From positions 4,820-68,819 of the forward strand of contig JAGWKM010000003.1 of the NCBI GenBank assembly GCA_028865305.1: DNA of 64,000 nucleotides. The letters are read 5' to 3'. Positions 23,981-56,388 of the stretch are shown here, one piece after another (the first letter of the stretch is position 1; the number at the start of each line of letters is the position of its first letter). Source of the DNA: Patescibacteria group bacterium (GTDB lineage Bacteria > Patescibacteriota > Minisyncoccia > UBA6257 > 2-01-FULL-56-20). The notes beneath the pieces were generated by a model. It saw only the letters and a program-made list of their open reading frames with translations, was not told the DNA's origin and made no database searches. A program made the translations under genes and the position numbers.

Positions 23981-24128
23981 ACTAATATCTAATTAATAAT
24001 TAATAACGAATGTCCAAGGTTAAATTTCCAACGGACATTCGGTCATTATCCATTCGTTATTAATTATTAATTAGAAATTTCCCCAACAATCCATTCGTTA
24101 TTAATTAGATATTATTAATTAGAAATTT
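23981..24128 (+). repeat. Family-A AT-rich palindromic element, copy A1 (full length)
   Basis: 22-bp perfect inverted repeat AATTAATAATTAATAACGAATG (23991-24012) / CATTCGTTATTAATTATTAATT (24051-24072) with a 38-nt loop. A third arm follows after AGAAATTTCCCCAACAATC. Confidence 0.9.
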
Positions 24129-24135
24129 ACCTCTC

Positions 24136-24552
24136 ATGGACCAGCCCCAATCTTTCGAACAGCGCCTCGAATCCGATATGCACCAGCTTGCGGAGCAGGT
24201 TGCGGCCCAGCGCGAACGGCCGGAAATGAAAGGCATGCGCGAGCAGGAGCTTTTAAAAGAGGCAATCCGTGCTTTTCCGGGCGTCCCGCGGCCGCCGCAG
24301 GAATTGAAAGCGCAAACATTGCCGCAATCGCCTTCGGCCGCCGCAATGAGCCCTTTGCCGGCCTACGCGCAATCCGCTTCGCCTGAAACAAAATTGGAGA
24401 TCGAGCACCTGATTGAGGTCGCGTTCAGCAAGGGAGTGGTCGAAGCATTCGCAGAGGCGGAAAAATCATCGTATTTCGTGGAGGACGCGCTTGTGGACGC
24501 CCTCGCCGGAAAGTTGTATCCGATTTTGCAAGCGAAAAAATTGATAAACTAA
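24136..24552 (+). CDS. Hypothetical protein (138 aa)
   Basis: ORF with coding-like composition directly upstream of pilC. No family recognised. Confidence 0.5.
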   Translation: MDQPQSFEQRLESDMHQLAEQVAAQRERPEMKGMREQELLKEAIRAFPGVPRPPQELKAQTLPQSPSAAAMSPLPAYAQSASPETKLEIEHLIEVAFSKGVVEAFAEAEKSSYFVEDALVDALAGKLYPILQAKKLIN

Positions 24553-24566
24553 TGTAATGGTCAGTC

Positions 24567-24600
24567 CATTTGTCATTTGTCATTTGTCATTTGTCATTTG
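24567..24600. repeat. Tandem (CATTTGT)x~5 immediately upstream of pilC
   Basis: catttgtcatttgtcatttgtcatttgtcatttg ends 7 nt before ATG 24608. Confidence 0.9.
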
Positions 24601-24607
24601 ATCACCC

Positions 24608-25684
24608 ATGGCTTCCCCCGGCTTTTTTTCAAAGATGTTCGACCGGATCTCCGTGCAGGAACGGATCAATTTCGCGCGGCATCTTTCGCTTGTCGTGAAA
24701 GCCGGACTCCCCGTTTTCCAGGGACTGAAGATCATCGAGGGGCAGACCGAATCGCCGGTCTTGAAGCGTGTCGTGCAAAGTTTGCTCGAAGACGTGCAAA
24801 ACGGGAAATTCCTTGCTGACGGCCTGCAGAAATTCGAGCACCTTTTCGGCGGTTTTTTCATCAACATTGTCCGCGTCGGCGAATCGAGCGGCACGCTTTC
24901 CAAAAACCTGCTCTACCTCGCCGACGAACTGAAGCGTTCCAAGGATCTCCAATCGAAGGTCCGTTCGGCGATGATTTATCCGATGGTCATTTTAGTCGCG
25001 ACGCTCGCGGTCGCCGGTTTCCTCACGTTTTATATTTTCCCCAAGCTTATTCCGGTCTTTTCCGGCATGAAGGTGCAGCTGCCGATCACGACCCAAATCC
25101 TTCTCAAATCCGTAAATTTCCTCCAGGCGGACGGATTGTATCTTTTGGCGGGAATCATCGTTTTTGCGATCTTCGTCCGCATCGTTTCGAAGCAGGTAAC
25201 TTTCGTGAAGTATTTCCTGAGCCAGGTCTTGTTTTTCATTCCGGTCGTTTCAAACCTCACGGTCAGCGTCAATATGGTGAACTTTACGCGCGTGCTCGGT
25301 TTGCTTTTGAAAAGCGGCGTGAAGATCGTCGAGGCGATCCAGATCACCGGATCCACTTTCAGCAATCTTGTCTATCAGCGGTTCCTGGTTGAGGCGGCGG
25401 AGGAGATTAAGAAAGGCGGCCAGCTCGGGCTTTTCATTGTCAAATACAAGCGTTATTTCCCGCCGCTCGTTTCCGGCATGGTGCAGATCGGCGAGAGCAC
25501 CGGCAATCTTGAGGAAAACCTGGAATACCTTTCCACATATTACGACGAGGAAGTGGATGCGAAGCTGCATGCCCTGACTTCGCTCATCGAGCCGATCATG
25601 CTGCTCTTCATGGGCGGCCTCGTGGGATTCGTGGCGTTGTCGATCATCACGCCCATATATTCAATTTCATCAGGAATCCAGTAA
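24608..25684 (+). CDS. pilC: Type II secretion / type IV pilus platform protein (GspF/PilC family)
   Basis: Duplicated T2SSF architecture: ERINFARHLSLVVKAGLPVFQGL ... and a second half with GESTGNLEENLEYLSTYYDEEVD. Three TM segments. Confidence 0.85.
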   Translation: MASPGFFSKMFDRISVQERINFARHLSLVVKAGLPVFQGLKIIEGQTESPVLKRVVQSLLEDVQNGKFLADGLQKFEHLFGGFFINIVRVGESSGTLSKNLLYLADELKRSKDLQSKVRSAMIYPMVILVATLAVAGFLTFYIFPKLIPVFSGMKVQLPITTQILLKSVNFLQADGLYLLAGIIVFAIFVRIVSKQVTFVKYFLSQVLFFIPVVSNLTVSVNMVNFTRVLGLLLKSGVKIVEAIQITGSTFSNLVYQRFLVEAAEEIKKGGQLGLFIVKYKRYFPPLVSGMVQIGESTGNLEENLEYLSTYYDEEVDAKLHALTSLIEPIMLLFMGGLVGFVALSIITPIYSISSGIQ

Positions 25685-25734
25685 TGAGTTGTCGTCCTGG
25701 GCCTGGCCCGGATCCAGGGCGTTGAAAAATGACT

Positions 25735-25885
25735 GATTAATAATATCTAATTAATAACGAATGGATTGTTGGGGAAATTTCTAATTAATAATTAATAATT
25801 AATAACGAACGCCTAATGCTCGAATGTCCATCAGACATTTCTCCTTGGATATTCGTTTTAATTATTAATTAGACATTATTAATTT
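25735..25885 (-). repeat. Family-A element, copy A2 (inverted relative to A1)
   Basis: ttaataatatctaattaataacgaatggattgttggggaaatttctaattaataattaataattaataacgaa...attcgttttaattattaattag. The head is the reverse complement of the A1 tail. Confidence 0.88.
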
Positions 25886-25948
25886 CAAACCTCGATCCCG
25901 GCCTGCCTGCCGGACAGGCATGCTCGGAGACCGGGATGACAGAATAAT

Positions 25949-27703
25949 ATGGAATTCAGAAAAGCCACCTCCCTCATCGATCTCATCATCGCCATTGCCA
26001 TCATCGCCCTCCTCTTCGGCGGCGTCTATCTGGTGTACTTTTCCATTATCTCGGCGGCAACGAACGTCGGGGCGCGGACGGCAGCAAGCGAAGCGATTGG
26101 GAACGAATTGGAGATGATCAGAAACCTTCCTTATGCGGATGTCGGCACGGTGGGAGGAATTCCGGCGGGCGTCATCCCGCAGAACCGGACGAGCACGATC
26201 AATAACTTCACGATTGCGCTCCGAACGACGGTGTTCAATATCCACGATCCGTATGACGCCGCCTCCGGCAGCGTGCCGAATGCCGACTACAAGCTCGTGA
26301 CCGTGACGGCCAGCTGCCCCACGTGCGTGCATTTCGTTCCGATGGGCATCACGACTACCGTGGCGCCGCCGAACCTCCAGGCGGCCGCGGCGCAAGGCGG
26401 CGTTATCATCGTGAATGTGCTCGATGGGAACGGCATCGGCGTTCCGGGCGCAGAGGTGCAGGTGGTGAACGCTTCCGTCACGCCTTCCATCGATCTTACC
26501 GATTTCACGAACGCAAGCGGCATCCTCGAATTGCTTGGCGTTCCCACGAGCACGCAGGGATATTACCTTTCGGCGACAAAACCTGGATGGTCCCTCGATC
26601 AAACCTACGCGCCGGGCTCGCTCGGCAGTTCGACGCCGGTGAGCCCGAACGTCACGGTGGCGTCGCAGACAATCTCGAGCGTTTCGTTTTCTATCGATGC
26701 CCTGAGCCAACTTACCGTTCAGACGCTTACGGACCGCTGCGTGTCCGTGGGGAGCGAGCCATTTACGGTGACCGGTTCGAAACTGATCGGCACGTCGCCG
26801 GATATTTTCAAATTTTCCACAAGTTCCGAAACAAATGCGAGCGGTACGGTGACCTTTTCCCCGATCGAATGGGATTCTTATAATCTGGCGCTTGCCGATG
26901 CCGCCCGGGATGTCGCGGGTACCATCCCGTTCAATCCGGTGGCCATGAGTCCGAGTTCGAGCCGGCTTTTCCAATTCATTTTACGGCCGGCGGCAAACCC
27001 TTCGCTCCTTGTGACCGTCCAGGATGCGGCGACCGGCGCCGGAATCCCGAATGCGACGGCAACGGTTTCTTCAAATGGTTATTCGGCGGCGCTCGTCACT
27101 AGCCACGCGGTCTTTTCGCAAACCGATTGGTCCGGCGGGCAATACGCAAGCCAATCCGGCGGTATCAACGCGAACGTGTCCGGCGCTTTGTCGCTCGCGC
27201 TGAACGCTTCCGGAACTTATAATACCGGTTCGACGGAATGGCTCATTTCAAACACCTTCGATGTCGGCGGAACCAGTTCGACGTTCAATACCATTTCGTC
27301 GAATCCGGCATCAGAGCCGCCTTCGACCGGCGCGGGCAGTTTGGAATTCCAGGTCGCCGCGAATAATGACAACGCCACGTGGCATTTTATAGGCCCGGAC
27401 GGAACCGCAAATACTTATTTCACAACCGGCACGAGCACCTTGCCCGCCTCGCTCGCCGGCAACCGCTATTTTCGCTACGAAGTTTTCATGAGCACCCAGG
27501 ATACCAATAATACGCCGACACTCGATTCGGTGACTTTTGATTTCACCGCCAATTGCGTTCCGCCGGCACAGGTGCTTTTCACCAACCTGCCGACCGGTTC
27601 ATACACGGTCGACGTGCAGGCGCCCAATTATCAGGAAACTACCTCCAGTGTGAGCATAGGGGCAGGGGAGCAGTCAACGACGATCCAGATGGCGCATTTG
27701 TAG
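25949..27703 (+). CDS. Giant pilin/pseudopilin-like protein with CarboxypepD_reg-like and beta-rich domains
   Basis: N-terminus MEFRKATSLIDLIIAIAIIALLFGGVYLV resembles a prepilin-type hydrophobic helix. VNVLDGNGIGVPGAEVQVVN...TNASGILEL is a carboxypeptidase-regulatory-like fold motif. Confidence 0.65.
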   Translation: MEFRKATSLIDLIIAIAIIALLFGGVYLVYFSIISAATNVGARTAASEAIGNELEMIRNLPYADVGTVGGIPAGVIPQNRTSTINNFTIALRTTVFNIHDPYDAASGSVPNADYKLVTVTASCPTCVHFVPMGITTTVAPPNLQAAAAQGGVIIVNVLDGNGIGVPGAEVQVVNASVTPSIDLTDFTNASGILELLGVPTSTQGYYLSATKPGWSLDQTYAPGSLGSSTPVSPNVTVASQTISSVSFSIDALSQLTVQTLTDRCVSVGSEPFTVTGSKLIGTSPDIFKFSTSSETNASGTVTFSPIEWDSYNLALADAARDVAGTIPFNPVAMSPSSSRLFQFILRPAANPSLLVTVQDAATGAGIPNATATVSSNGYSAALVTSHAVFSQTDWSGGQYASQSGGINANVSGALSLALNASGTYNTGSTEWLISNTFDVGGTSSTFNTISSNPASEPPSTGAGSLEFQVAANNDNATWHFIGPDGTANTYFTTGTSTLPASLAGNRYFRYEVFMSTQDTNNTPTLDSVTFDFTANCVPPAQVLFTNLPTGSYTVDVQAPNYQETTSSVSIGAGEQSTTIQMAHL

Positions 27704-27802
27704 AAAGTGGGGACCAGCAAACAGCGATAAGAAAACAATTCTGGATTCATTCATTTTACTTTTTTTCCCGCTCCCCGCTCCCTGGTTCTTATTGTCTCCC
27801 TG

Positions 27803-28504
27803 CTACATCTCCGCTTCCGCTGCTTCGGTTTCGATCAGTCCCGTGATTTTTTCCGCAACCTGTTCCGGCGCGTCCACGGGGATATTCGGCCGGTCGCCGG
27901 GACGGAAATGCGCAAATTCGCCGGTGCGGACCGCATTTTTTCCGAAATTGGTTGAGGTCATTTTCGGATGTATCACGCTCACGATGATGTGGTCCTTTTT
28001 TAATTCTTCGCGGGCGGTGAGCGAGATAGCATTCAACGCGTATTTCGTGGAGGCATAGGCGCCGAGGTTCGGGAAATAATTTTTCGAAACGCGCGAGCTT
28101 ACGTTCAAAATCATGCCTCCGCCCTGCCGCCGCATGATCGGGATCGCAAGCTGCATCGCGCGGAGGACGCTTACCACGTTCAGTTCAAGAATATCCCTAT
28201 ATCTTTCGATATCCACGGATTCGATCGGCCCGTACAGGCCCTGCCCGGCGTTATTGATCAGGATATCGATCCGGCCGTATTGGCCCATGGCCGCATCGAT
28301 CATTTTCCGGATATCATCCGGCTTCCGCAGGTCTGCCGGCACCGCAAGCGCATCCGGCAGCTCGTCCACCAGCTTTTTCAAGGTATCCGCCGACCGTGCT
28401 GCCAAAACCGTTTTCGCGCCTTTAGCCGCCAGCAGCTTTGCCGTCGCGAGCCCGATCCCTTGCGAAGCACCAGTGATGACAATCACTTTGCCTTTGATTT
28501 GCAT
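27803..28504 (-). CDS. Short-chain dehydrogenase/reductase (SDR)
   Basis: KVIVITGASQGIGLATAKLLAAKGAK (TGxxxGxG), NNAG and YASTKYAL (YxxxK) motifs. Start set at MQIKGK. Confidence 0.88.
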   Translation of the reverse strand: MQIKGKVIVITGASQGIGLATAKLLAAKGAKTVLAARSADTLKKLVDELPDALAVPADLRKPDDIRKMIDAAMGQYGRIDILINNAGQGLYGPIESVDIERYRDILELNVVSVLRAMQLAIPIMRRQGGGMILNVSSRVSKNYFPNLGAYASTKYALNAISLTAREELKKDHIIVSVIHPKMTSTNFGKNAVRTGEFAHFRPGDRPNIPVDAPEQVAEKITGLIETEAAEAEM

Positions 28505-28587
28505 ATGCCTATTATACGCATCTCCCCGGAAATCCGGTGAAGCAATAAAAAATCGCCCGAACCGGATCGGGCGACCGAAAGAGCCAT

Positions 28588-29598
28588 TCAGCGTTTGGGG
28601 ACTTCGTGCGCTTCGAGCGCCTGGCGGTACTTCTCGATGGAGTAGAGTTCGAAAGCGTCGCCGCACATGAAGACGGCAACGATATTACCGTCTTTGTTCC
28701 GGAGCCGTTCCCAGGCGCCGGGTGTGCGCCGTTCATTTTTGAGAAATTTCTCAAGGGCGACTCTTGCGCCGCCGGAAGTCGGACCGCCGTGGATGCCTGC
28801 AATCGCGAGCTCCCAGCTGCTCCGGTAGGCCTCGGCCTGGCGGATTTCTACTAGGTTTACATTGGCGTTCGATGTGTCGCCGATGATTTTCGAAAGGGGA
28901 ACTTGCGAGAGGCGGCTCATCGTGCGCATACCGGGCACCGGATTGCCTTCGGCGCAGTAGCCGGCAACCACCGTAATCGGAGCCGTGAAGCTGATGGCTG
29001 CTCCGATGTGGCCGCACGTGCCCAAAGTGCCGGCGTAAACAGTCATCTTTTCCCGGGTTTGTTCCCAGGCGGGGGTAATGTGATATATTAAATGCCCTTT
29101 GATGTTGTCCGGATTCGAATATTGGCCGATATAGCGGCAGCCCTTTTCCTGGCCTCTTAAACAGGCCTGCTGCATGGCGGTCGCTTCCCCGGGCAGGTCG
29201 CGGCATTTCACGAGCTCGAGGTCGGCACCGATATCCGCGAGTTCGCGGAGCCGGTCCTCTTTTGTTTTTGGCATATCTGCCGGAACGAAAAGGACTGCTT
29301 TGAGGCCGCGATGCTGCGCAAAGATGGCTTCGCATTTCGCCGTATTGCCGGAGGAAGAATCGGTGATTGTGTGGACGCCGTCAAGTTCGCCGCGCATTTC
29401 GGCTTCGTGGAACATGTGGAATACGGCTGGGTGCTTGAGCGATTGCAGTGGCCATTCGAAAGCGGCCTGCGCGTATATCTTCACTCGATCTTTCGACGGA
29501 AACGGGTTTAGCTCGGGCGGCAACTGGATGAGCGGAACGGGCGGAAGATGGCGCGGATCAAGATAGGCAGTCGGACTTTCGAAAACGTTGTTTTGCAC
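28588..29598 (-). CDS. PLP-dependent enzyme, tryptophan-synthase-beta superfamily (fold type II)
   Basis: SLKHP (candidate PLP lysine) and ITDSSSGNTAKCEAIFAQHRGLKAVLFVP are typical of the cysteine-synthase/threonine-synthase-like PALP fold. Confidence 0.65.
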   Translation of the reverse strand: MQNNVFESPTAYLDPRHLPPVPLIQLPPELNPFPSKDRVKIYAQAAFEWPLQSLKHPAVFHMFHEAEMRGELDGVHTITDSSSGNTAKCEAIFAQHRGLKAVLFVPADMPKTKEDRLRELADIGADLELVKCRDLPGEATAMQQACLRGQEKGCRYIGQYSNPDNIKGHLIYHITPAWEQTREKMTVYAGTLGTCGHIGAAISFTAPITVVAGYCAEGNPVPGMRTMSRLSQVPLSKIIGDTSNANVNLVEIRQAEAYRSSWELAIAGIHGGPTSGGARVALEKFLKNERRTPGAWERLRNKDGNIVAVFMCGDAFELYSIEKYRQALEAHEVPKR

Positions 29599-29660
29599 GC
29601 TGTGCTCCTTTTTAGATGGACTGCTTTCCTTCTACTCCGAAAACAGAAGGAAAGCAAGGG

Positions 29661-32460: not shown

Positions 32461-32461
32461 G

Positions 32462-34892: not shown

Positions 34893-35402
34893 ATGGAACT
34901 CGATCCGCGGTTACATTTTGTAGTGGTGACGGGGATTGTGGCGAAGTTGGAAAATGGGACGCCAAAATTCCTGATCGCGAAGCGCGCACCGACGGAAAAA
35001 GCGTTCCCGAACAAATGGACCGTGCCGGGCGGCAAGCTCGTGCGGACCGAATATGAAAATTTGCCCAAGCGGCCGTATGTGGAAGGCCAGAAGCCGAGCG
35101 AGGCGCCGCAGTGGTATAACCTGGTTGAATGGGTGTTGCGGAAGGAAGTGATGGAAGAAGTGAACGTCGAAATCGAATCGCCGAAATATCTGACTGATCT
35201 TGTCTTTATCCGCCCCGACGGTTATCCCGTCGCCACGCTTTCCTATTGGGCGATGTACAAATCCGGAGACCCCAAGCCGGGCAAGGATTTAACGGAGGTG
35301 GCCTGGGTCACCGCCGCCGAGGCGAAGCAGCATGACATGATAGAGGGCATTCCGGAGGAAATCGCGGAGGTGGAGAGGATAATTGTAGAACGTATAATGT
35401 AG
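34893..35402 (+). CDS. NUDIX hydrolase
   Basis: WTVPGGKL ... LRKEVMEEVNVEI form a Nudix box split by an insertion. Confidence 0.7.
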   Translation: MELDPRLHFVVVTGIVAKLENGTPKFLIAKRAPTEKAFPNKWTVPGGKLVRTEYENLPKRPYVEGQKPSEAPQWYNLVEWVLRKEVMEEVNVEIESPKYLTDLVFIRPDGYPVATLSYWAMYKSGDPKPGKDLTEVAWVTAAEAKQHDMIEGIPEEIAEVERIIVERIM

Positions 35403-35416
35403 AATGTAGAATGGGA
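35383..35416. repeat. Purine-type half-arm of a heptad palindrome (left flank of 4HB cassette 1)
   Basis: ttgtagaacgtataatgtagaatgtagaatggg. Contains the NUDIX stop TAG. Confidence 0.8.
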
Positions 35417-35438
35417 TTAAAAAATTATTAAATAACTT

Positions 35439-35467
35439 TTGCAGACTTCAGATCCACATGCTATGAA
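35439..35467 (+). promoter_or_regulatory. Cassette-borne promoter TTGCAG-N17-TATGAA, 6 nt before ATG 35474 (leaderless)
   Basis: Read directly. Homologous in position to the promoter of the second cassette (38887-38914). Confidence 0.55.
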
Positions 35468-35473
35468 TGGCAT

Positions 35474-35881
35474 ATGGCAACTCAAAAAATTGAACAATTT
35501 ACCGATCTCAACGCATGGAAAGAATCTCACAAATTAGCCTTATTTGTTTATAAAGCAACAAAAATCTTCCCCAAGGAAGAAATGTTTGGGTTAGCGAACC
35601 AGATGAGACGGGCCGCCGTCTCGATCACTTCAAATATTGCTGAAGGATTCGGAAGGCGAAGCAGCAAGGAAAAGCTCCAGTTTTATTATCTTTCCAAGGG
35701 TTCTTTAAACGAAGAAAAGAACCAGCTTTTAATATCCCGTGATGTCGGATATTTGGAAAACGATCTTTTTACAGAAGGTATGAAGCAAGCCAATATTGCG
35801 GATCAATTATTACAAGGATTAATTCGTTCTGCGGCATTGAGGACTGGCTCTTATTTCCGTAATAATACCTCCAGCCACTGA
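35474..35881 (+). CDS. Four-helix-bundle protein (23S rRNA intervening-sequence protein / Avd-like family), copy 1
   Basis: FTDLNAWKESHKLALFVYKATKIFPKEEMFGLANQMRRAAVSITSNIAEGFGRRS.KE...FYYLSKGSLNE is the TIGR02436/PF05635 signature. AT-rich. Confidence 0.85.
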   Translation: MATQKIEQFTDLNAWKESHKLALFVYKATKIFPKEEMFGLANQMRRAAVSITSNIAEGFGRRSSKEKLQFYYLSKGSLNEEKNQLLISRDVGYLENDLFTEGMKQANIADQLLQGLIRSAALRTGSYFRNNTSSH

Positions 35882-36459
35882 ACGCCCCGCAATTCCTGCA
35901 GCCCATTTTTGACGATGATAAATTTTCCAGCCAGTTCTTCTATATCTTTTTGAGAGTAGAAATAAAACATCCTTTTTCCAAACTTGTCCTCCTTCAATAT
36001 TTTTTCGTAATTATCCTTATGCTTTAAAGAAATGCGCATTGCGCCGCCTTCATTAAGTGCCGCATATGAATGCGCCAGGATCTCTTTCAAGCTTTCCTTT
36101 GGTACATGAAGCAGCGAAGCAAAGGCAAAAATTATATCCAAACCATCCGGGAAAAAAAAGTTTTCTATGTCCGCAACCTCAAACCGGCCGTTTGGCACTT
36201 TCCTTTTGGCGAGCGCAATCATCCCTTCGGAAATATCTATGCCTAGATAATCATTCGTTTCCTTGATAATTTCCTCTGTGTCCCTGCCATTCCCGCAGCC
36301 GATTTCCAGAATTTTCGGATTTATTTTATCTACAAGCTGAAAGGTTTCTCTTATATCAGAAATCCGCACTCCTATTTCATCAAATTTGGCAGCGAGCTGA
36401 TGCGCGCTATTATTGTAAGCATCAACCGTTTGCGATTTTTCCTCCTGAAAATTATTCAT
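35851..36459 (-). CDS. Class I SAM-dependent methyltransferase
   Basis: ILEIGCGNGRDT (motif I) and LDIIFAFASLLH. Its 3' end overlaps the 4HB gene by 31 nt (convergent). AT-rich. Confidence 0.8.
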   Translation of the reverse strand: MNNFQEEKSQTVDAYNNSAHQLAAKFDEIGVRISDIRETFQLVDKINPKILEIGCGNGRDTEEIIKETNDYLGIDISEGMIALAKRKVPNGRFEVADIENFFFPDGLDIIFAFASLLHVPKESLKEILAHSYAALNEGGAMRISLKHKDNYEKILKEDKFGKRMFYFYSQKDIEELAGKFIIVKNGLQELRGVQWLEVLLRK

Positions 36460-36506
36460 GATTTTCAACTGAATATGGGATGAAACGTAGAATACAAAAA
36501 GAGTCC

Positions 36507-36540
36507 GCCCATTATACATTCTCCATTATACATTCTTCCT
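36507..36540. repeat. Pyrimidine-type half-arm of a heptad palindrome (right flank of 4HB cassette 1)
   Basis: gcccattatacattctccattatacattcttcc. Contains the prfA stop (TAA on the minus strand, 36526-36528). Confidence 0.8.
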
Positions 36541-38120: not shown

Positions 38121-38879
38121 ATGATTTCATTTTCGGGCGTGACGAAGTCCTATGGCAAAGGCAAAAAGCTACGGACCGTGGTGGACGATTTCACGCTGGA
38201 TGTCGACGTGCCGATTTTCGGCTTTTTAGGGCAAAACGGGGCTGGGAAGACGACTATCATGAAAATGACGGTAGGATTGCTCATGCCGACTGCGGGAACG
38301 ATCGGGATTGACGGCGTCCCGTCGCAAAGCGCCGCGGCAAAGTCCAAAATTGGCTTCATGCCCGAAACACCGTATTTTTATGAGCGGATGACGGGAATTG
38401 ATTTCCTGCGGTTCTGCGATGAACTGTATGGCAGCCCCGAAAAGGACCATCGGGGGCGCTACGAAACCATTCTGAAAAAAGTCGGCATTTTCGAGGCGCG
38501 CAGCCAGGAGATCCGCACCTATTCAAAGGGCATGCGCCAGCGGTTGGGGTTTGCGCAAGCGCTCGTGAACGATCCGGAATACCTGTTTTTGGATGAGCCG
38601 CTCGACGGCCTGGATCCGCTCGGCCGGCGCGAGATGAAGGCGGTGATGTTGCGGCTGAAAAGCGAAGGCCGGAAGATTTTTCTCAATACCCACATCCTCT
38701 ATGATGTCGAAGAGATCTGTGACGAGGTGGGTATCATTCACGAAGGGAAATTATTATACGCCGGCGGCGTGAAGGAATTTTGCGCGGGGAAGCCGCTCGA
38801 GGAGCGGTTTGTGGAAACGGTCACGGGTGCGAAGAATGGAGTACGGAGAATGGAGAATGAATTATTAAAAATTCATTAA
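38121..38879 (+). CDS. ABC transporter ATP-binding protein
   Basis: Walker A GQNGAGKTT, signature YSKGMRQRLGFA and Walker B LFLDEPLDGLD. The C-terminal tail GAKNGVRRMENELLKIH is encoded by a heptad array plus the cassette edge. Confidence 0.88.
   Translation: MISFSGVTKSYGKGKKLRTVVDDFTLDVDVPIFGFLGQNGAGKTTIMKMTVGLLMPTAGTIGIDGVPSQSAAAKSKIGFMPETPYFYERMTGIDFLRFCDELYGSPEKDHRGRYETILKKVGIFEARSQEIRTYSKGMRQRLGFAQALVNDPEYLFLDEPLDGLDPLGRREMKAVMLRLKSEGRKIFLNTHILYDVEEICDEVGIIHEGKLLYAGGVKEFCAGKPLEERFVETVTGAKNGVRRMENELLKIH
38829..38866. repeat. GAGAATG-type purine arm at the left flank of 4HB cassette 2
   Basis: gcgaagaatggagtacggagaatggagaatgaatt. Confidence 0.8.
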
Positions 38880-38886
38880 ATAACAT

Positions 38887-38914
38887 TTGCAAATTAAAAC
38901 GCACATGCTATGAC
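38887..38914 (+). promoter_or_regulatory. Cassette-borne promoter TTGCAA-N16-TATGAC, 6 nt before GTG 38921 (leaderless)
   Basis: Read directly. The flanking sequence ATTAAATAAC.TTTGCA......CACATGCTATGA is shared with cassette 1. Confidence 0.55.
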
Positions 38915-38920
38915 GAAGAT

Positions 38921-39289
38921 GTGGAAAATAGAATCAAAAAGTTTACCGATCTCAACGCATGGAGAGAAGCCCATAAGCTTGTTTTGTATATTTATAGAAT
39001 TACAAGGTCGTTTCCTAAAGAGGAAATTTTTGGTTTAACAAATCAAATGAGACGGGCAGCTGTATCTATAACTTCAAATATTGCAGAGGGATTTGGAAGA
39101 CGCAGTTTTAAGGACAAAGCACGGTTTTATTATTTGGCAAAGGGATCGATAAACGAAGAGAAAAATCAAATTTTGATTTCTCATGACATCGATTATTTAT
39201 GCGATGCTGAATTTCAGGAAGGTATACAGCAGGCTGACATTGCAGATCAACTTTTACAGGGTTTAATTAATTCAACAGAAAAAGGATAA
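38921..39289 (+). CDS. Four-helix-bundle protein (23S rRNA IVS / Avd-like family), copy 2
   Basis: FTDLNAWREAHKLVLYIYRITRSFPKEEIFGLTNQMRRAAVSITSNIAEGFGRRS. Paralogue of the 35474 gene with high identity by eye. AT-rich; GTG start. Confidence 0.85.
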   Translation: MENRIKKFTDLNAWREAHKLVLYIYRITRSFPKEEIFGLTNQMRRAAVSITSNIAEGFGRRSFKDKARFYYLAKGSINEEKNQILISHDIDYLCDAEFQEGIQQADIADQLLQGLINSTEKG

Positions 39290-39290
39290 T

Positions 39291-39354
39291 GATGGAGGTG
39301 GAATTGGGGTGATTTTATCCCATTCTCCATTCTCCATTCTCTATCCTCCATCCC
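39291..39354. repeat. Heptad hairpin / pyrimidine arm at the right flank of 4HB cassette 2
   Basis: gatggaggtggaattggggtgattttatcccattctccattctccattctctatcctccatccc ends at the base before ATG 39355. Confidence 0.8.
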
Positions 39355-40119: not shown

Positions 40120-40128
40120 TGTGAATGA

Positions 40129-40214
40129 CTAATTAATAATTAATAACGAATGCCCAATATCGGAATGCCCAACGGATATTATGCATTGGACATTCGTTAT
40201 TAATTATTAATTAG
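40129..40214. repeat. Family-A element, copy A3 (hairpin module only)
   Basis: Perfect 24-bp inverted repeat CTAATTAATAATTAATAACGAATG / CATTCGTTATTAATTATTAATTAG with a 38-nt loop. Confidence 0.9.
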
Positions 40215-40233
40215 ACATTAGCCATTTCAAAAA

Positions 40234-49608: not shown

Positions 49609-49630
49609 ACCTTGTTTTTAAGCAGATTTT

Positions 49631-49659: not shown

Positions 49660-49703
49660 TCATCCGCTTCTTTTTGGGAATATTTTGCATTATATTTAGG
49701 AAC

Positions 49704-50966: not shown

Positions 50967-51074
50967 CGAAGAGAACGGCGGTTTGCCTTTGGAAGCATCT
51001 TGCGGCCGTGTCGCTTCCGGACGACGCACACGGTCCTTCCGCACCCAAAAACCTTGACACTTCGTAAAAAAAAC

Positions 51075-51506
51075 ATGGATTCTCCTAAGAAAAATGGTGG
51101 GATATGGGACATGGGACATGGAAAGCCGTTCCTCGACGGACCGGAGCCTTCGGACACGCTCGCTCCCCGGATTCTGCATTGCATTGAAGATCGCGAGCGG
51201 CGGGATTTGCGCATGAAAATGGCCGTCTTTGGGGCAATGTTCATGGGTTCGCTTTCGGCGGCCGTTGCCGGTTTTTTGAATTTCGGGGCCCAGGTTTCGC
51301 AGTCCGGCTTTTTATCATTCGCCTCACTTTGGTTTTCTGATTTTTCGGCGGCCATTGCCAATTGGTCTGACATGCTCTCTTCAATGGTGGAATCATTTCC
51401 GGCCTTGCCCGCGGCATTGGTCCTGGGCGGCGTTGCGTTTGCAGCTTGGTCGGCCGGGAAGCTGGTTTCTGAAATAACCCTCATGCGGATGCACCGGCTG
51501 TCATGA
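51075..51506 (+). CDS. Hypothetical membrane protein
   Basis: Two or three TM segments. 4-nt overlap with the next gene. Confidence 0.5.
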   Translation: MDSPKKNGGIWDMGHGKPFLDGPEPSDTLAPRILHCIEDRERRDLRMKMAVFGAMFMGSLSAAVAGFLNFGAQVSQSGFLSFASLWFSDFSAAIANWSDMLSSMVESFPALPAALVLGGVAFAAWSAGKLVSEITLMRMHRLS

Positions 51507-51964
51507 AAAACTTCCTCGAATCAAAAAATGTCCGCGCCGTTATTTTTATCCTCGGCGGCATTGCGGCAGCCCTTTTGGTATTCAGCGCCGGCGTGGCGGT
51601 CGGCGAGCGTAAAGCGATTTTCTCGGCGGCATGGGGAAAAAATTATGGCCGGTTCTTTTTTACCGCGGGACCGCCGCCGGGCGCGATCGGCGTCATGGTC
51701 CAGCGCGGGCCCTGGAACACCCATGGCGTGGCCGGCCAGGTCATTGATGTTTCAAGTTCATCGTTCATGGTGAAGGATCCGGACAACGACGAACGGTCGA
51801 TCGCGATCACGTCGGGCACGGTCATCCGCGATGCGAACCAGGTGATTCCGCTCGATAACATCGATCCCGGATACCAGGTGGTCGTCATCGGGCAGCCGAA
51901 CGCAAGCGGCCAGGTCGAGGCGAGATTCGTAAGAGTGTTTGAAGTGTCGAGTTCGCCGCAATAA
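51503..51964 (+). CDS. Membrane-anchored small beta-barrel-like protein (DUF5666-like pattern)
   Basis: N-terminal TM, then GQVIDVSSSSFMVKD......ITSGTVIRD.......NIDPGYQVVVIGQPNASGQVEARFVRV. Paralogue-like to the 56418 gene. Confidence 0.55.
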   Translation: MKNFLESKNVRAVIFILGGIAAALLVFSAGVAVGERKAIFSAAWGKNYGRFFFTAGPPPGAIGVMVQRGPWNTHGVAGQVIDVSSSSFMVKDPDNDERSIAITSGTVIRDANQVIPLDNIDPGYQVVVIGQPNASGQVEARFVRVFEVSSSPQ

Positions 51965-51967
51965 CCC

Positions 51968-53812
51968 ATGTCCAAATTCAAATTATTCATCAAATCGCAT
52001 CGGGTTGCCTCGATCATCGTCCTTATCGTTGCCCTTGCCGGTTGCTATTACTGGTACCGCAGCGCGCAAAGCGCTTCGGCGCCGGCACGGTATGTAGTTG
52101 CCGCGGCCAAGCCGGGAACCGTGATTGCCTCGGTGCAGGGGAGCGGCCAGGTGGATTCGGTGACATCGATCAACGTGAACCCCCAGGTGACGGAGACGGT
52201 GACCGGCGTTTACGTCCAGCCCGGCGATTACGTCCGCGCCGGCCAGCTATTGGTACAGCTCGATCCGACGAATGAACAAAAGGCCCTGCGGCAGGCGGAG
52301 CTTTCGCTGCAGTCAGCCCAAATATCACTTTCCAAACTGCAGGAGGCGCCTGCCACGACCACGCTCGTCCAGGATCAAAATGCCGTTACGCAGGCAGAAG
52401 ACCAATTGAACACCGCCTCCGCAACACTCCAAAGGGATTATCAGTCGGGTTTTGATACTTTGACCGCCACATTCACCGACCTGCAGAATATCATCACCGG
52501 CGTCCAGAATTTCGTTCAGGGCGCTGACGTGAATAAGATCCAGGCCGATCCGGATGCCTATGTGAACCTGATGCCGAATTACCTAACCGCGCAAGCTCTG
52601 CCGTATCGCAACAACATTTATTCCGCATTCCAAACGGCAACCGCGGCATACCAAAACAACCTGGTTGATTTCCACGCCGCAGACCGGAATTCAAGTCCGG
52701 CAATCATCGATGCGCTCCTTGCGGAAACGGCGAGTACCGCGAAGAATATTTCAAATAGCGTGAAATCGGTGAAGGATCTCCTGAATTTCGTCGTCAATAA
52801 CTATCCATCTTCCTCAAGCACCAACCCGCTGCCGCAGGTCACGAACACGTATCAAACGAATTTCGGCAATTATACAAATACGATCAACACCGATATTTCG
52901 AATCTGCTCGGCGCTCAAAATACGATTTCGTCCGACAAGACCGCAATTAAAAATGCCCAGCTTTCGCTGAATGAAGCGCAAAATACGCTCACGGCGCTCT
53001 TGGCTGGCCCCGATACGCTTGATGTGCAATCACAGAACATTTCGATTCAGCAACAGCAGCTTTCCCTGCAAACGGCCCAGCAGAATCTGGACAATACTTC
53101 GATCCGTGCGCCGATTTCCGGCGTGATTTCCGCCGTGAGCGCCGTGGCGGGAGAAAGCGTAGCTTCGCCGGCAGTGACCATGGTTGGCTCGGATAAGGTG
53201 GCGGAAGTGACGTTGAACGAAGTGGATGCGGCGAAAGTGAGCTTGGGCCAGCAAGCGGCGCTGAGTTTCGACGCGCTGCCGAATCTGTCGCTCGCGGGGA
53301 AAGTAGTGGAAGTGGATCCGGTCGGCACCGTGTCGCAGGGCGTCGTGAATTACAACGTGAAGATCAGTTTTGCGAGCGCGGCTTCCGCGACGAGCACGGA
53401 CCAAGTGAAGCCCGGCATGAGCGTGACGGCGAATATCATAACGCAAGCCGACCAGAATGTGGTGACCGTGCCGAACTCGGCGTTGCTTACCGTCGGTTCG
53501 CAAAAATTCATCATGGTACCGGCTTCACCGCTATCGGCCGAAGAATTGGCGTCCAGCTCCGCCGTCGGGATTGAACTCGCGGCGGCACCGGTACGTGTTC
53601 CGGTCGCAACGGGAATTTCAAACAGCAACGTGACTGAGATCACATCCGGTTTGAATGTCGGCGACCAATATATAGCAAGGACCATTTCAGGTTCCGCCGG
53701 AACGGGCGGGGCGGGAACGAATGCGCTGCGCACGCTTGGCGGCGGCGCAGGCGGAGCATTCTTCGGAGGCGGCGCGGTCCGAGTCGGCGGAGGAGGACGT
53801 GTTGGCGGATGA
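51968..53812 (+). CDS. HlyD/MacA-type periplasmic adaptor (membrane fusion protein) with long coiled coil and Gly-rich tail
   Basis: Lipoyl-like VYVQPGDYVRAGQLLVQLD ... IRAPISGVISAV, and a beta-barrel/MP domain VKPGMSVTANI. Long Q/N/T-rich helical hairpin. Confidence 0.8.
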   Translation: MSKFKLFIKSHRVASIIVLIVALAGCYYWYRSAQSASAPARYVVAAAKPGTVIASVQGSGQVDSVTSINVNPQVTETVTGVYVQPGDYVRAGQLLVQLDPTNEQKALRQAELSLQSAQISLSKLQEAPATTTLVQDQNAVTQAEDQLNTASATLQRDYQSGFDTLTATFTDLQNIITGVQNFVQGADVNKIQADPDAYVNLMPNYLTAQALPYRNNIYSAFQTATAAYQNNLVDFHAADRNSSPAIIDALLAETASTAKNISNSVKSVKDLLNFVVNNYPSSSSTNPLPQVTNTYQTNFGNYTNTINTDISNLLGAQNTISSDKTAIKNAQLSLNEAQNTLTALLAGPDTLDVQSQNISIQQQQLSLQTAQQNLDNTSIRAPISGVISAVSAVAGESVASPAVTMVGSDKVAEVTLNEVDAAKVSLGQQAALSFDALPNLSLAGKVVEVDPVGTVSQGVVNYNVKISFASAASATSTDQVKPGMSVTANIITQADQNVVTVPNSALLTVGSQKFIMVPASPLSAEELASSSAVGIELAAAPVRVPVATGISNSNVTEITSGLNVGDQYIARTISGSAGTGGAGTNALRTLGGGAGGAFFGGGAVRVGGGGRVGG

Positions 53813-53853
53813 CCTTTCTGTCATGCTGATGCTCTGCCGAAGAATCTTATCTG

Positions 53854-53998
53854 AAATTTCTAATATCTAATTAATAATTAATAACGAATGTCTAAAGTTA
53901 AATTTCCAACGGACATTTGGCATTACACATTCGTTATTAATTAGTCATTATTAATTAGATATTTCCCCAACAACACATTCGTTATTAATTAGAAATTT
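53854..53998 (+). repeat. Family-A element, copy A4 (full length)
   Basis: gaaatttctaatatctaattaataattaataacgaatg...cattcgttattaattag...atttccccaacaacacattcgttattaattagaaattt. Confidence 0.9.
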
Positions 53999-54040
53999 GG
54001 AGCGTTATTGATTGATTACCCGGCGCAAAACCAACGAGCG

Positions 54041-54763
54041 ATGAAAAATATTATTGATTGCAAAAACATCCAAAAGACTTACGGCGCAGGCGACACGGCG
54101 ACCGTGGTCCTGAAGGGCGTAACGTTCTCCGTAAAGGAGGGGGAGTTTGTGGCGATCATGGGGCCGTCCGGTTCCGGCAAATCAACGTTGATGCACATCA
54201 TCGGCTGTCTCGATACGCCGACCGGCGGGGAATATTTGATTGACGGCAGGGATGTTTCCAAGTTAAGCGATGACGAACTTGCCGATATCCGTCGCGAGAA
54301 GATCGGTTTCGTCTTCCAGGCGTTTAATCTTTTGCCGCGAACGACTGTCCTGCGGAATGTTTCGTTGCCGCTCATTTATGAAGGTGTCGAGAAAACGAAA
54401 CGCGAAGGGATTGCCGAAAGGGCATTGGCCGATTCCGCTTTTCCGCAGAAATTTTGGTACCACCATTCAAACCAGCTTAGCGGCGGTATGATGCAGCGCG
54501 TGGCGATCGCCCGGTCGCTCGTCAATAATCCGGCGCTCATTTTGGCGGACGAGCCGACCGGCAACCTGGATTCAAAGACCGGCGAGACCGTCCTCGGTAC
54601 GTTCCAAAACCTGAATGAGAAGCAAGGCAAGACGATCGTCTTGATCACCCATGAGCGCTATGTCGCCGAACACGCCGACCGGATCATCCATATTTTAGAC
54701 GGGAAGATCGTGCAGGAGGAGTCGAATGGCGTGCACCAGAGGAAAGCGACAATCAATGTCTAA
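54041..54763 (+). CDS. MacB/LolD-type ABC transporter ATP-binding protein
   Basis: GPSGSGKSTLMHIIG, LSGGMMQRVAIARSL and LILADEPTGNLD. Confidence 0.9.
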   Translation: MKNIIDCKNIQKTYGAGDTATVVLKGVTFSVKEGEFVAIMGPSGSGKSTLMHIIGCLDTPTGGEYLIDGRDVSKLSDDELADIRREKIGFVFQAFNLLPRTTVLRNVSLPLIYEGVEKTKREGIAERALADSAFPQKFWYHHSNQLSGGMMQRVAIARSLVNNPALILADEPTGNLDSKTGETVLGTFQNLNEKQGKTIVLITHERYVAEHADRIIHILDGKIVQEESNGVHQRKATINV

Positions 54764-54906
54764 TGTCTAATTAATAATTAATAACGAATGTGTAAAGTTA
54801 AATTTCCAACGGACATTCGGACATTATCCATTCGTTATTAATTATTAATTAGATATTTCCCCAACAATCCATTCGTTATTAATTAGGCATTATTAATTAG
54901 AAATTA
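54758..54906 (+). repeat. Family-A element, copy A5 (full length; overlaps the ATPase stop codon)
   Basis: gtctaatgtctaattaataattaataacgaatg...cattcgttattaattattaattag...atttccccaacaatccattcgttattaattaggcattattaattag. Confidence 0.9.
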
Positions 54907-54909
54907 CGT

Positions 54910-56154
54910 ATGACGACCAGCGATATTTTTGAAGAAACTTATTCAGCCGTGACGGTCAATAAGGTCAGATCGGGCTTAACGATGCTCGGCATCGTGATCG
55001 GCATCGCTTCGGTGATCGCCTTGACCGCCGTCGGCCAGGGCGCCCAAAGTTCGATCCAGTCAAGCATTCAATCGCTTGGCTCGAACCTGCTCATCGTAAT
55101 GCCGGGCGCTTCGAAATCATTCGGTTCCACGGTGAGTGCGGGTCTCGGCAGTGCTGAAACGTTAACGCCGGATGATGCCACGGCCATCAGTCAATTGCCC
55201 GGCGTGAGCGCCGTCGCGCAAGAAGTGAGCGGCCGCTATCAGGTCGTCTACGCAGGCACCAACACGAACGTCAGCGTTCTCGGCACCACGTCCGCTTATC
55301 CCATCGTGCGCAACGTACAGATCGACCAGGGAAATTTCATCACCGACCAGGATGTCGCCGAATCGAACCGTATTGCGGTAATCGGCCCGACCGTTTTGCA
55401 AACATTATGGAATCCGTCAGGCAATGCGACAGCCACGCCCGACATGGCAATCGGCCAGATGATCCGCATCAAAGGTGTTGATTTTACCGTTATCGGCGTG
55501 ACAGTTTCAAAAGGCGGCACCGGCTTCAATAACCAGGACAATATGATTTACGTGCCGCTCTCAACCGCCCAGCATTATCTCATTGGAAACAGTTCTTATA
55601 TCACCGAAGCCGACGTGGAGGCCCAGGATGCGCAATCAATGACGAACGTGCAGGATGAAATTACGCAGCTTTTACTCCAGCGGCACAATATCAGCGACCC
55701 GACGCAAGCCGATTTCAACGTACTGAACCAGGCGGATATCGTCGCGGCCGCTTCATCTGTTACTGGAACTTTCACGACTTTGCTTGCCGCGATCGCCGGC
55801 ATTTCGCTCCTCGTCGGCGGCATCGGCATCATGAACATGATGCTCACGACCGTCACCGAGCGAACGCGCGAAATCGGCTTGCGCAAGGCGATTGGCGCCA
55901 AGCGGCACGATATCACGATGCAATTCCTGGCCGAATCCGTTACGCTCACGTTCGGTGGCGGCGCTATTGGCATTATCCTCGGTTGGCTTGGCGCAATCGC
56001 GATATCTTCGTTCACCGGTACCGCAACAACCATTTCGCTCGGTTCGATCATTTTGGCTTTCTGTGTCTCTGCCGGAATCGGGATCGTGTTCGGCTATTAT
56101 CCGGCAAGGCGGGCGGCAGGGCTGAATCCGATAGAAGCTCTGAGATATGAGTGA
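54910..56154 (+). CDS. MacB-type ABC transporter permease (FtsX family with large extracytoplasmic domain)
   Basis: TM1, then a ~230-aa MacB_PCD-like domain, then three TMs with the FtsX motif RTREIGLRKAIGAKR. C-terminal PIEALRYE. Confidence 0.88.
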   Translation: MTTSDIFEETYSAVTVNKVRSGLTMLGIVIGIASVIALTAVGQGAQSSIQSSIQSLGSNLLIVMPGASKSFGSTVSAGLGSAETLTPDDATAISQLPGVSAVAQEVSGRYQVVYAGTNTNVSVLGTTSAYPIVRNVQIDQGNFITDQDVAESNRIAVIGPTVLQTLWNPSGNATATPDMAIGQMIRIKGVDFTVIGVTVSKGGTGFNNQDNMIYVPLSTAQHYLIGNSSYITEADVEAQDAQSMTNVQDEITQLLLQRHNISDPTQADFNVLNQADIVAAASSVTGTFTTLLAAIAGISLLVGGIGIMNMMLTTVTERTREIGLRKAIGAKRHDITMQFLAESVTLTFGGGAIGIILGWLGAIAISSFTGTATTISLGSIILAFCVSAGIGIVFGYYPARRAAGLNPIEALRYE

Positions 56155-56234
56155 AATGTTCCTGGCATCCCGAACTTGCTGCATCCGCCATGGCTTTAGC
56201 GAGGGCGGAGCCCGGGATCTAGAGCGTTCACATG

Positions 56235-56388
56235 ACTAATTAATAATATCTAATTAATAACGAATGCATTGTTGGGGAAATTTCTAATTAATAATATCTA
56301 ATTAATAACGAATGAATAATGTTCGAATGTCCGTTGGAAATTTAACCTTGGACATTCGTTATTAATTATTAATTAGATATTAGAAATT
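56235..56388 (-). repeat. Family-A element, copy A6 (inverted relative to A4/A5)
   Basis: ctaattaataatatctaattaataacgaatgcattgttggggaaatttctaattaataatatctaattaataacgaatg...cattcgttattaattattaattag. Confidence 0.9.

Follow-up and report, generated by a model that had tools for sequence, protein, structure and literature searches.

The AT-rich 112-nt palindrome of 7-base words described here is a gene-less, selfish-looking repeat with about 80 copies between the genes of a tiny uncultured host, and heptad-armed palindromes of this kind are common in Patescibacteria. With moderate confidence, we regard it as one of a heptad-armed foldback class of lineage-specific, gene-less palindromic DNA repeats that occupy gene junctions in a Paceibacteria-like lineage of Patescibacteria. 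No description of an AT-rich heptad-armed palindromic unit was found in the literature searched, and Rfam at gathering score gave no match across the whole window, the 64,000-nucleotide stretch of DNA analysed; a known repeat family was matched only by the GC hairpins adjoining the units, which are of the NTS/SRM type. It is best read as a lineage-specific variant among the REP-, NIME- and MITE-like repeats that spread without target duplication.

Elements in the window

An earlier sequence-only reading had listed six copies and a degenerate seventh, and all are found where it placed them (Table 1). The 7-nt periodicity of the arms is confirmed, as are the long perfect stems (23-25 consecutive pairs in A1, A3 and A5), and A5 is predicted to fold into an uninterrupted stem with a free energy of -44 kcal/mol (z = -6.9). 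The arm TAATTAATAATTAATAACGAATG has 17 matches at up to three mismatches in the window and none in 100 shuffles. Each of the three gaps in the set of HlyD, ABC ATPase and MacB permease genes is indeed filled by an element, and the outermost heptad of A5 includes TAA at 54761-54763, the stop codon of the ATPase gene, bearing out the overlap that had been noticed. A6 is placed between a stop codon and a conserved AAGGTCG leader (five genomes compared). A7 is of an older or GC-richer type, such as occurs in the relative L080.

Table 1. Palindromic elements and adjoining GC hairpins in the window
Feature	Position	Strand	Description
A1	23977..24128	+	Full 112-nt unit and half-unit between divergent genes; nhmmer 145.5 bits; 25 consecutive stem pairs
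NTS/SRM-like GC hairpin abutting A2	25690..25722	+	TGTCGTCCTGGGCC..GGCCCGGATCCAGG; CGTCAT-type end distal to the unit; DNA fold, motif compared with PMC11893778
A2	25731..25885	-	Half-unit and full unit, loop reversed, downstream of a PilC-like T2SSF gene; nhmmer 143.4 bits
Mirror-image NTS/SRM-like GC hairpin, other side of A2	25890..25941	-	..CCGGGATGACA; DNA fold
A3	40124..40228	-	Single unit between an ABC-2 permease gene and its neighbour; nhmmer 71.4 bits; 24 consecutive pairs
SRM-like GC hairpin left of A4	53819..53847	+	TGTCATGCTGATGCTCTGCCGAAGAATC; homologous hairpin at the corresponding L083 site
A4	53853..54001	+	Unit and half-unit in the HlyD-ATPase gap; nhmmer 140.8 bits; orthologous L083 site has the family
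A5	54755..54906	+	Unit and half-unit in the ATPase-permease gap; nhmmer 145 bits; 29-bp stem (RNA fold)
SRM-like GC hairpin, long loop, left of A6	56163..56226	+	
A6	56234..56390	-	Half-unit and unit in the permease-DUF5666 gap; nhmmer 152 bits
A7	63804..63908	+	Diverged relative; TAATGTC/TAATGGC heptads around the same TAACGAATG..CGTTCGTTA core; nhmmer 22.3 bits, E = 1.2e-4

Architecture and common origin

The basic unit is a two-arm palindrome of 112 nt, in which four heptads and TAACGAATG (a 37-nt arm) are followed by a 38-nt loop and the mirror arm. The left part of the founder reads AAATnTC TAATATC TAATTAA TAATTAA TAACGAATG and the right part, beyond the loop, CATTCGTTA TTAATTA GAnATTA TTAATTA GAnATTT; within the heptads TAAT is invariant and the remaining three nucleotides vary. 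The element had been described as arm, loop, inverted arm, spacer and third arm, of which the palindrome stands, while the spacer and third arm prove to be an attached half-unit confined to a subfamily and joined through a constant junction, CCCCAACAA (GAAATTTCCCCAACAAnnCATTCG), with 14 copies at unrelated loci on seven contigs. The proposal that each element offers three protein-binding sites ending in CGAATG depends on this third arm. Head-to-tail tandem arrays of two to four units also occur, with a constant CCCCGA spacer whose junction is found six times on five contigs. Sizes range from 112 to 155 bp, and the fixed junctions show that composite forms, both unit plus half-unit and head-to-tail multimers, are themselves copied between places.

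Arms are 84.9% identical among copies and loops 69.2%, and nearest-neighbour copies are 73-96% identical. Once oriented by the loop, all 53 well-preserved units carry the alpha and beta heptad variants in the same order, and this shared left/right arm asymmetry points to one origin: the 80 or so units, at 68 intergenic loci, descend from a single asymmetric founder of 112 nt.

That the arms arose by independent slippage of heptanucleotide microsatellites which merely happen to form hairpins is extremely improbable, and as the sole explanation it is already contradicted. The genome and its relatives are rich in heptad arrays of differing words, the number of heptads differs slightly among copies, and the arms of an orthologous four-helix-bundle cassette have changed word in situ (GTAGAAT versus GAAGGAA); slippage may still shape the arms. 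However, independent slippage cannot give 53 units with one loop, one core and one asymmetry, nor do fixed composite junctions recurring at unrelated loci fit it; the arms consist of four different heptads in fixed order rather than a homogeneous array. Cyanobacterial STRR sequences are heptanucleotide tandem repeats. Heptamer arrays are also described in Xanthomonas and Nostoc (PMC4692102). These bacterial repeats resemble the present family in being intergenic arrays of 7-nt words but differ in that ours are short (four heptads), consist of heterogeneous words in fixed order, face each other as mirror images across a conserved core, and were copied together with it as one defined unit of 112 nt. 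The suggested kinship with the GAGAATG hairpins holds, in that several heptad-armed palindrome families coexist in the genome.

Genomic distribution

The copies had been thought confined to pilus and efflux neighbourhoods (the gene at 24608-25684 matches Pfam T2SSF), which the genome-wide nhmmer census contradicts: the family numbers about 81 units, spread over 68 loci of the 23 contigs (0.74 Mb) that make up the host part of the bin, with every large host contig represented, and it is not a pilus- or efflux-gene-specific signal. The bin contained no strain variants. Local clustering is mild (adjacent occupied junctions number 10, where 4.6 +/- 2.0 would be expected; P = 0.015). All 68 loci are intergenic, with flanking genes taken from crude ORF calls made for this analysis. 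The units sit tightly between stop and start codons, at sites where coding sequence stays undisrupted, and all three reading frames of either arm contain stop codons. Tandem, divergent and convergent junctions number 47, 10 and 7, against a background of 482, 154 and 152, and there is no preference of orientation, as the loop runs with transcription in 24 cases and against it in 28.

Mobile-element models

The sequence-only reading had placed the element among MITE-, REP- or Correia-like repeats; the general kind is right, the copies being palindromes of common origin that are scattered over the genome and strictly limited to intergenic sites in one lineage, but the specific models fail. A classical Correia-type MITE, that is, a non-autonomous derivative of a DDE transposon with terminal inverted repeats and target-site duplication, is suggested by the size, the long inverted arms, the dozens of dispersed intergenic copies, the contig breaks that fall at copies, and two rve-type genes on host contigs; Correia elements and other bacterial MITEs further share the abundance, the proximity to starts and stops and the potential to form dsRNA. 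We nevertheless consider this very improbable. Target-site analysis of the flanks of 53 units gave matching k-mers at shuffle level (k=4, 12 versus 8.5 +/- 2.3; k=5, 4 versus 2.4), with no TA or other duplication, and internal heptad periodicity sets the units apart from those elements. The transposase search was equally negative: the rve genes lack matching ends, DDE_Tnp_1 matches lie only on small contigs free of element copies, and no autonomous transposase-bearing element with such ends occurs on the host contigs. Furthermore, copies at different loci always differ in sequence, the sole pair at 100% being one locus read at two contig ends.

Mobilisation of REP/REPIN doublets by a RAYT (Y1/HUH) transposase, which we judge still less probable, would accommodate intergenic, hairpin-forming inverted doublets without target-site duplication, and with REP/BIME and REPIN sequences the family shares species-specific sequence, tandem and composite arrangements, and arms more conserved than the centre. 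One RAYT-like gene is present (C158:9299-9976), which scores 38 bits with Pfam Y1_Tnp and, against a cut-off of 80, 51.5 bits with NCBIfam REP_Tyr_transpos. However, it goes with another palindrome: GAAGACCGTCTTCGAAGACGGTCTTC (GAAGACCGTCTTC) palindromes flank it, a separate family with 38 copies in the genome G000 and 131 in its congener G001, and its contig carries no TAATTAA unit. Nor are the 37-nt, heptad-built arms of the AT-rich unit like the short (20-40 nt), imperfect palindromes with a GTAG head that typify REP sequences.

Comparison with relatives and host function

The element was missing from 40 relatives examined, and its core pattern occurs 35 times in G000, whereas of the family's other 124 genomes 122 have none and two a single match each. 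The A4 site of L083, whose ATPase is 88% identical, carries a member of the family; L080 shares the core but has TAATGTC arms; G001 combines a homologous loop with CCAATTT arms; and L082 has short empty spacers in the same operon. Corresponding gene junctions in relatives hold palindromes of other heptads, or nothing, and arm type is uniform inside one genome and different between genomes. By our reading, some palindrome is also present in G001 at about 21 of the 22 syntenic junctions, against some 26-37% of junctions overall.

That nearly all of these junctions are occupied in a congener as well counts against a selfish repeat, as it could mean that the host needs a hairpin there. Host-selected operon punctuation, in which transcribed stems would serve as RNase III sites, insulators or stabilisers and the sequence family would be incidental, is the most serious rival, albeit an unlikely one. 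Stems 16-29 bp long make good dsRNA substrates, the genome has an rnc gene directly downstream of a unit, the units fit tightly between stop and start codons, and the syntenic palindromes persist despite different sequences. Yet the transcribed strand shows no sign of preserved pairing: G·U to A·C counts are 20:27 in the AT-rich family and 184:216, 304:297 and 57:87 in all hairpins and in the heptad hairpins of G000 and G001, giving no G·U excess in the family or in the approximately 470 hairpins of the two genomes, and arm mismatches are mostly identical 3-nt bubbles inherited by every copy. Units lie in either orientation, with divergent and convergent junctions near their background proportion, the promoter and terminator scan stayed at shuffle level, the same operon of the close relative L082 makes do with hairpin-free spacers of 17-37 nt, and the copies have sequence and asymmetry in common beyond structure.

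It seems rather improbable to us that the arms are arrays of sites at which a DNA-binding protein (nucleoid, partition or regulator) recognises TAATnnn heptads, and that selection for this binding maintains the family. Arms far more conserved than loops, an invariant TAAT beside a variable 3-nt part, and one arm type per genome, differing between genomes as under co-evolution with a reader protein, would all be expected. No candidate protein was found, however, the 7-bp spacing is out of helical phase, and the same pattern is expected of any repeat that needs its ends for copying.

Adjoining GC hairpins and mode of spread

[quoted passage not shown] GC hairpins matching the described NTS/SRM family (PMC11893778) adjoin 29 of 136 unit flanks against 64 of 950 background flanks with a strict detector, more being visible by eye, and their CGTCAT end is always distal to the unit. 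Like NIMEs, the units are non-coding, intergenic and ~110-150 bp long, form multi-unit arrays without target-site duplication and cluster around some genes. Often, though far from always, small GC hairpins of the class CGTCAT + ATYCCnnn..nnnGGRAT + CYRG frame them in mirror image. Unlike NIMEs, the present unit forms a long palindrome of its own, with arms of 7-nt periodicity, its host is a Patescibacterium, and about half of the units lack an adjoining GC hairpin, which also weighs against our reading. A NIME-like mosaic would be expected to have a cognate Ssn nuclease gene (GIY-YIG, cd10448) flanked by the hairpins; the only candidate here is an 89-aa single-domain GIY-YIG gene (C242:57387-57656), whose best PDB relatives are UPF0213 proteins and beside which no clear SRM was seen.

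We infer a copy mechanism that leaves no duplication, most likely recombination or gene conversion into junctions already holding related palindromes or NTS/SRM-like GC hairpins, as has been proposed for the neisserial mosaic elements; nuclease-driven, hairpin-dependent insertion is the alternative. One arm type would take over inside a genome, and related genomes would see their arms replaced but keep the junction and part of the core. The constraint acts on the DNA, in the arm sequence, and not on a sense-strand RNA hairpin. If expression is affected at all, for instance because RNase III cuts the 16-29-bp stems once transcribed, this would be a by-product.

Four-helix-bundle genes between heptad arrays

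A mobilising enzyme was not found, which counts against this reading, and four-helix-bundle (PF05635) proteins are not known to have transposase activity. The units may be gene-less counterparts of, and derived from, cassettes in which a gene of this rRNA-IVS type lies between inverted heptad arrays. Seven of the eight PF05635 genes on host contigs are so placed, one of them inside 16S rDNA. As in rRNA intervening sequences with a PF05635 ORF, the genes lie between inverted repeats, here heptad arrays resembling the arms of the gene-less units, although the units themselves carry no gene and lie outside rRNA. The densest cluster of units surrounds one PF05635 gene (C47:31132-31497); its adjoining arms have a polarity opposite to that of canonical cassettes, so it cannot be called a master copy. 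The unit loop and the ORF start of one homologue, L120, have the low-complexity motif AATGTCCAATG in common. All three sampled homologues of the C47 gene (L120-L122, 68-71% identical) are flanked by inverted heptad arrays, of the types CCAATTT, TCTAATT and GACAAAT.

Results

The AT-rich palindrome constitutes a real, well-defined and lineage-specific repeat family. The six clear copies (A1-A6) and one diverged relative (A7) that the sequence-only reading had recognised in the window are all found where it placed them, and the 23-nt arm occurs there 17 times with at most three mismatches, against none in 100 dinucleotide shuffles. Folded as RNA, A5 forms an uninterrupted 29-bp stem (-44 kcal/mol, z = -6.9), and A2 with its flanks, folded as DNA, gives z = -5.1. 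Pfam places a PilC-like T2SSF gene next to A1 and A2, and a HlyD/ABC ATPase/MacB permease set around A4-A6. The proposed overlap with the ATPase stop codon is also borne out, nucleotides 54761-54763 being the TAA of A5's outermost heptad (7-nt word), and units are thus able to rewrite gene ends.

Alignment of 53 well-preserved units in loop orientation, with heptads read outward from the core, yields a 112-nt two-arm consensus. The arms are in register, but their heptad variants are ordered differently on the left and on the right, so that most copies carry the same 3-nt bubbles outside a 16-bp perfect stem. This asymmetry is linked to loop orientation in all copies aligned, and therefore points to one founder rather than to local slippage. 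The spacer and third arm, earlier taken as part of the architecture, are only partly upheld: an attached arm is present but is not part of the basic unit, being a half-unit joined on the beta side via the constant junction GAAATTTCCCCAACAAnnCATTCG, which occurs 14 times on seven contigs. Tandem arrays run head-to-tail with a constant CCCCGA spacer, and the constancy of these composite junctions indicates that composites have themselves propagated or were produced by a site-specific process. Pairwise identity averages 79.5% (arms 84.9%, loop 69.2%); nearest-neighbour copies are 73-96% identical, the sole identical pair being one locus read at two contig ends.

An HMM built from the window copies and run on the contigs of the source bin G000 (1.99 Mb, 388 contigs) returned 153 strand-hits, which resolve into 81 units at 68 loci on 23 contigs, or about one locus per 11 kb. 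Although the element had appeared confined to pilus and efflux neighbourhoods, this distribution makes the family genome-wide and not limited to such genes. With gene positions taken from crude ORF calls made for this analysis, all 68 loci are intergenic, and the gap between a unit and the adjacent start or stop is often 0-15 nt. The loci are mildly clustered (10 adjacent occupied junctions versus 4.6 ± 2.0 expected, P = 0.015). Units also disrupt assemblies, as four contig ends fall within one.

The 23 unit-bearing contigs amount to 744 kb and form a single tight tetranucleotide cluster with the window contig inside it; this host cluster holds 87 heptad palindromes, versus three in much of the remaining bin, which differs in composition. 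Because of this cluster, and the restriction of heptad palindromes to it, the host genome is probably about 0.8 Mb, as in relatives. The 2-Mb bin itself is probably mixed, with some 0.74 Mb (the 23 contigs and a few similar ones) grouping with the window contig; relatives range from 0.5 to 1.3 Mb.

Target-site duplications at the unit ends give no signal over shuffled flank pairings, and neither strain variants nor empty sites are found within the bin. Neither of the two rve genes on host contigs has ends matching the unit, while the DDE_Tnp_1 matches lie on small contigs without any copy of it. The missing duplication signal and the lack of a transposase with matching ends argue against a Correia-type MITE. 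One RAYT-like Y1 gene (C158:9299-9976, outside the window) is present, and the units could be viewed as its REPINs; this is argued against by the different palindrome, GAAGACCGTCTTCGAAGACGGTCTTC, that flanks the gene. The GAAGACCGTCTTCGAAGACGGTCTTC palindrome is a family of its own (38 in G000, 131 in the same-genus genome G001), and together with the RAYT-like gene it looks like a separate REP/RAYT-type system.

A function in transcripts was likewise considered. Loop orientation shows no preference relative to flanking genes (24 same, 28 opposite), the occupied junctions comprise 47 tandem, 10 divergent and 7 convergent ones, near background (482/154/152), and a promoter and terminator consensus scan of the efflux operon stayed at shuffle level. 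Were a sense-strand hairpin under selection, stem mismatches on that strand would be expected to be G·U rather than A·C. The sense-strand G·U:A·C ratio of 20:27 in the TAATTAA family shows no G·U excess, and wider sets gave 184:216 (all G000 hairpins), 304:297 (G001) and 57:87 (G000 heptad-type). These counts, and the lack of any Rfam match at gathering scores across the whole window, argue against a selected structured RNA. RNase III, which is encoded in G000, could cleave transcribed stems; selection for cleavage is not visible. Its gene, rnc (C309:13168-13563), lies directly downstream of a TAATTAA unit (C309:12968-13079), and the orthologous gap in G001 contains an AATTTTC-type heptad hairpin.

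Many units adjoin a GC hairpin, either on one flank or on both as mirror images, for example TGTCATCCCGGGC..GACCCGGGATCCAGG and TGTCATCCTGAGC..GAAGGATC, with the CGTCAT-type end always distal to the unit. By a strict detector, 29 of 136 unit flanks carry such a hairpin, versus 64 of 950 background flanks. The motif class matches the Neisseria NTS/dRS3 sequence (CGTCATTCCCGCGMAVGCGGGAATCYRG = NTS) and the ‘Ssn-related motif’ as described in PMC11893778, where small GIY-YIG nucleases that act on single strands have both NTS and Ssn-related motifs as targets. An 89-aa single-domain GIY-YIG gene outside the window (C242:57387-57656), with UPF0213 proteins as best PDB relatives (1zg2, 1ywl), encodes a candidate partner of the hairpins, a putative Ssn-type protein. 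The closest described layout to units with GC hairpins is that of neisserial intergenic mosaic elements (NIMEs), in which RS units have flanking dRS3 hairpins (PMC1797815). GC hairpins also occur throughout G000 and G001 (TGTCATCCCGGGC..CCCGGGATCCAGG; TGTCATCCTGAGC..GAAGGATC; in G001 TGTCATTCCCGCGAAGGCGGGAATCCAC), solitary, in mirrored pairs or around heptad palindromes.

The TAATTAA element is absent from 40 relatives, G001 included. Its core pattern, with 35 occurrences in G000, is absent from 122 of 124 other species genomes of the GTDB family and gives single hits in the other two; exact-pattern scans of public genome and metagenome contig collections (two patterns each) found no match. 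In the literature searched, we found no description of heptanucleotide or palindromic repeats in CPR, Patescibacteria or Parcubacteria. The whole of G001 (753 kb) was also compared at syntenic junctions, where, on our own reading of the comparison, about 21 of 22 unit-bearing G000 junctions hold some palindrome in G001 as well. The fillers there are other heptads (AATTTTC, GGGTATA/CCCTAAA, TACGAAT, TTAATCC) or GC hairpins only, while long inverted repeats overall occupy only 23-26% of junctions and 32-37% of gaps of at least 40 nt. A G001 family has a loop, AATGTCCAATGATTTAATTTCCAATTGGACATT, homologous to that of G000, on arms of CCAATTT/CCAATAT heptads.

The three efflux-operon gaps were further compared in four contigs reached via MacB ATPase homology (L080-L083, see table, with ATPase identities). 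The G000 copy most similar to the L083 element (89%) is not the one at the corresponding site, so that vertical descent and re-insertion both fit. The permease-DUF5666 junction has five different fillers in five genomes, all following the stop codon and preceding a conserved AAGGTCG leader. From the gap and loop comparisons, relatives retain the sites and some of the core, whereas arm words agree within a genome and vary from one genome to another. The short leader itself, AAGGTCG...ATG (window 56391-56417), precedes the DUF5666 gene and is conserved in five genomes, with orthologous sites in L080, L081, L082 and G001; upstream of it, as far as the preceding stop codon, each has a different palindrome or nothing.

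Features of the repeat family, its companions and the orthologous gaps
Feature	Location	Description	Basis or score
Unit, left arm		AAATnTC TAATATC TAATTAA TAATTAA TAACGAATG	53-unit consensus
Unit, loop		TCCAA..AAATTTCCAAyGGACATTCGGACATTAnnC	53-unit consensus
Unit, right arm		ATTCGTTA TTAATTA GAnATTA TTAATTA GAnATTT	53-unit consensus
GC hairpins	window 25690-25722, 25890-25941, 53819-53847, 56163-56226	small, oriented	
PF05635 cassettes	window 35383-36540 and 38829-39354; C47:19850-20265, C47:31132-31497, C253:1442-1741, C328:25086-25319		
L083	A4 site	TAATTAA family, GC hairpins both sides	ATPase 88%; 81.5 bits
L080	A4 and A6 sites	same TAACGAA..CGTTA core, TAATGTC arms, like A7	ATPase 86%
L081	efflux-operon gaps	other heptad or octad palindromes	ATPase 86%
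L082	efflux-operon gaps	short empty spacers, 17-37 nt	ATPase 85%

Heptad arms also enclose genes. G000 has eight genes for four-helix-bundle (4HB, PF05635, rRNA-IVS-type) proteins, all on host contigs, and seven of them lie between inverted heptad arrays, each cassette having a word of its own. The first window cassette (35383-36540) additionally holds an opposite-strand gene; its G001 orthologue (c3:2820-3360) has the same 4HB gene (61% aa) and GAAGGAA arms in place of GTAGAAT, so an element can exchange the word of both its arms jointly at an unchanged site. The gene at C47:31132-31497 sits within the densest TAATTAA cluster, with four units upstream and a unit and partial arms downstream; the first heptad of that downstream unit supplies the gene's stop codon. 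We do not call it a master copy, since the adjoining arms have polarity opposite to that of canonical cassettes. All three sampled homologues of its protein (68-71%) are encoded between inverted heptad arrays (CCAATTT, TCTAATT and GACAAAT types). The evidence supports, and does not prove, the gene-less units as counterparts of the 4HB cassettes. One of the eight PF05635 genes (G000 C236:20075-20464) lies with flanking inverted repeats inside the 16S rRNA gene, inserted after GCAAGTCGAACGG as an intervening sequence, and G001 has a PF05635 gene at the same position (c44:17247-17558).

Discussion

Our analysis shows that the family is a repeat at the DNA level that seeks out gene junctions, leaves no target duplication and keeps NIME-like company; it is best classed among the heptad-armed palindromes of Patescibacteria, as a gene-less member. 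We tentatively propose a wider model, itself rather improbable, in which the AT-rich units, the other heptad-armed palindromes, the PF05635 cassettes (those in rRNA genes included) and perhaps the NTS-like hairpins would belong to one undescribed Patescibacteria element system. In this speculative model, a hypothetical machinery would read inverted 7-nt-word arrays at the DNA level, insert copies of them at gene junctions with no target duplication, and swap the arm word genome-wide, both arms and all copies changing together while the site is kept.

The prevailing view is that ultra-small bacteria have shed their spare DNA; in this genome, by contrast, long palindromes occupy about a quarter of the gene junctions, and a single family contributes some 80 units in 0.74 Mb. 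With sites and core kept and arms replaced between close relatives, the family offers a concrete system for the transposase-free spread of small palindromic repeats, and it opens the question of what role the widespread 4HB ‘IVS’ genes, and NTS-like hairpins outside Neisseria, may play. The G000 host contigs additionally carry perfect or near-perfect, almost loopless palindromes of up to 2 x 69 bp (e.g., C244:15476-15617, C219:17223-17330 and C47:28792-28895), built of graded GTATAAG/GTATAAA/GTATAAT heptads whose variant gradient is mirrored exactly across the arms.
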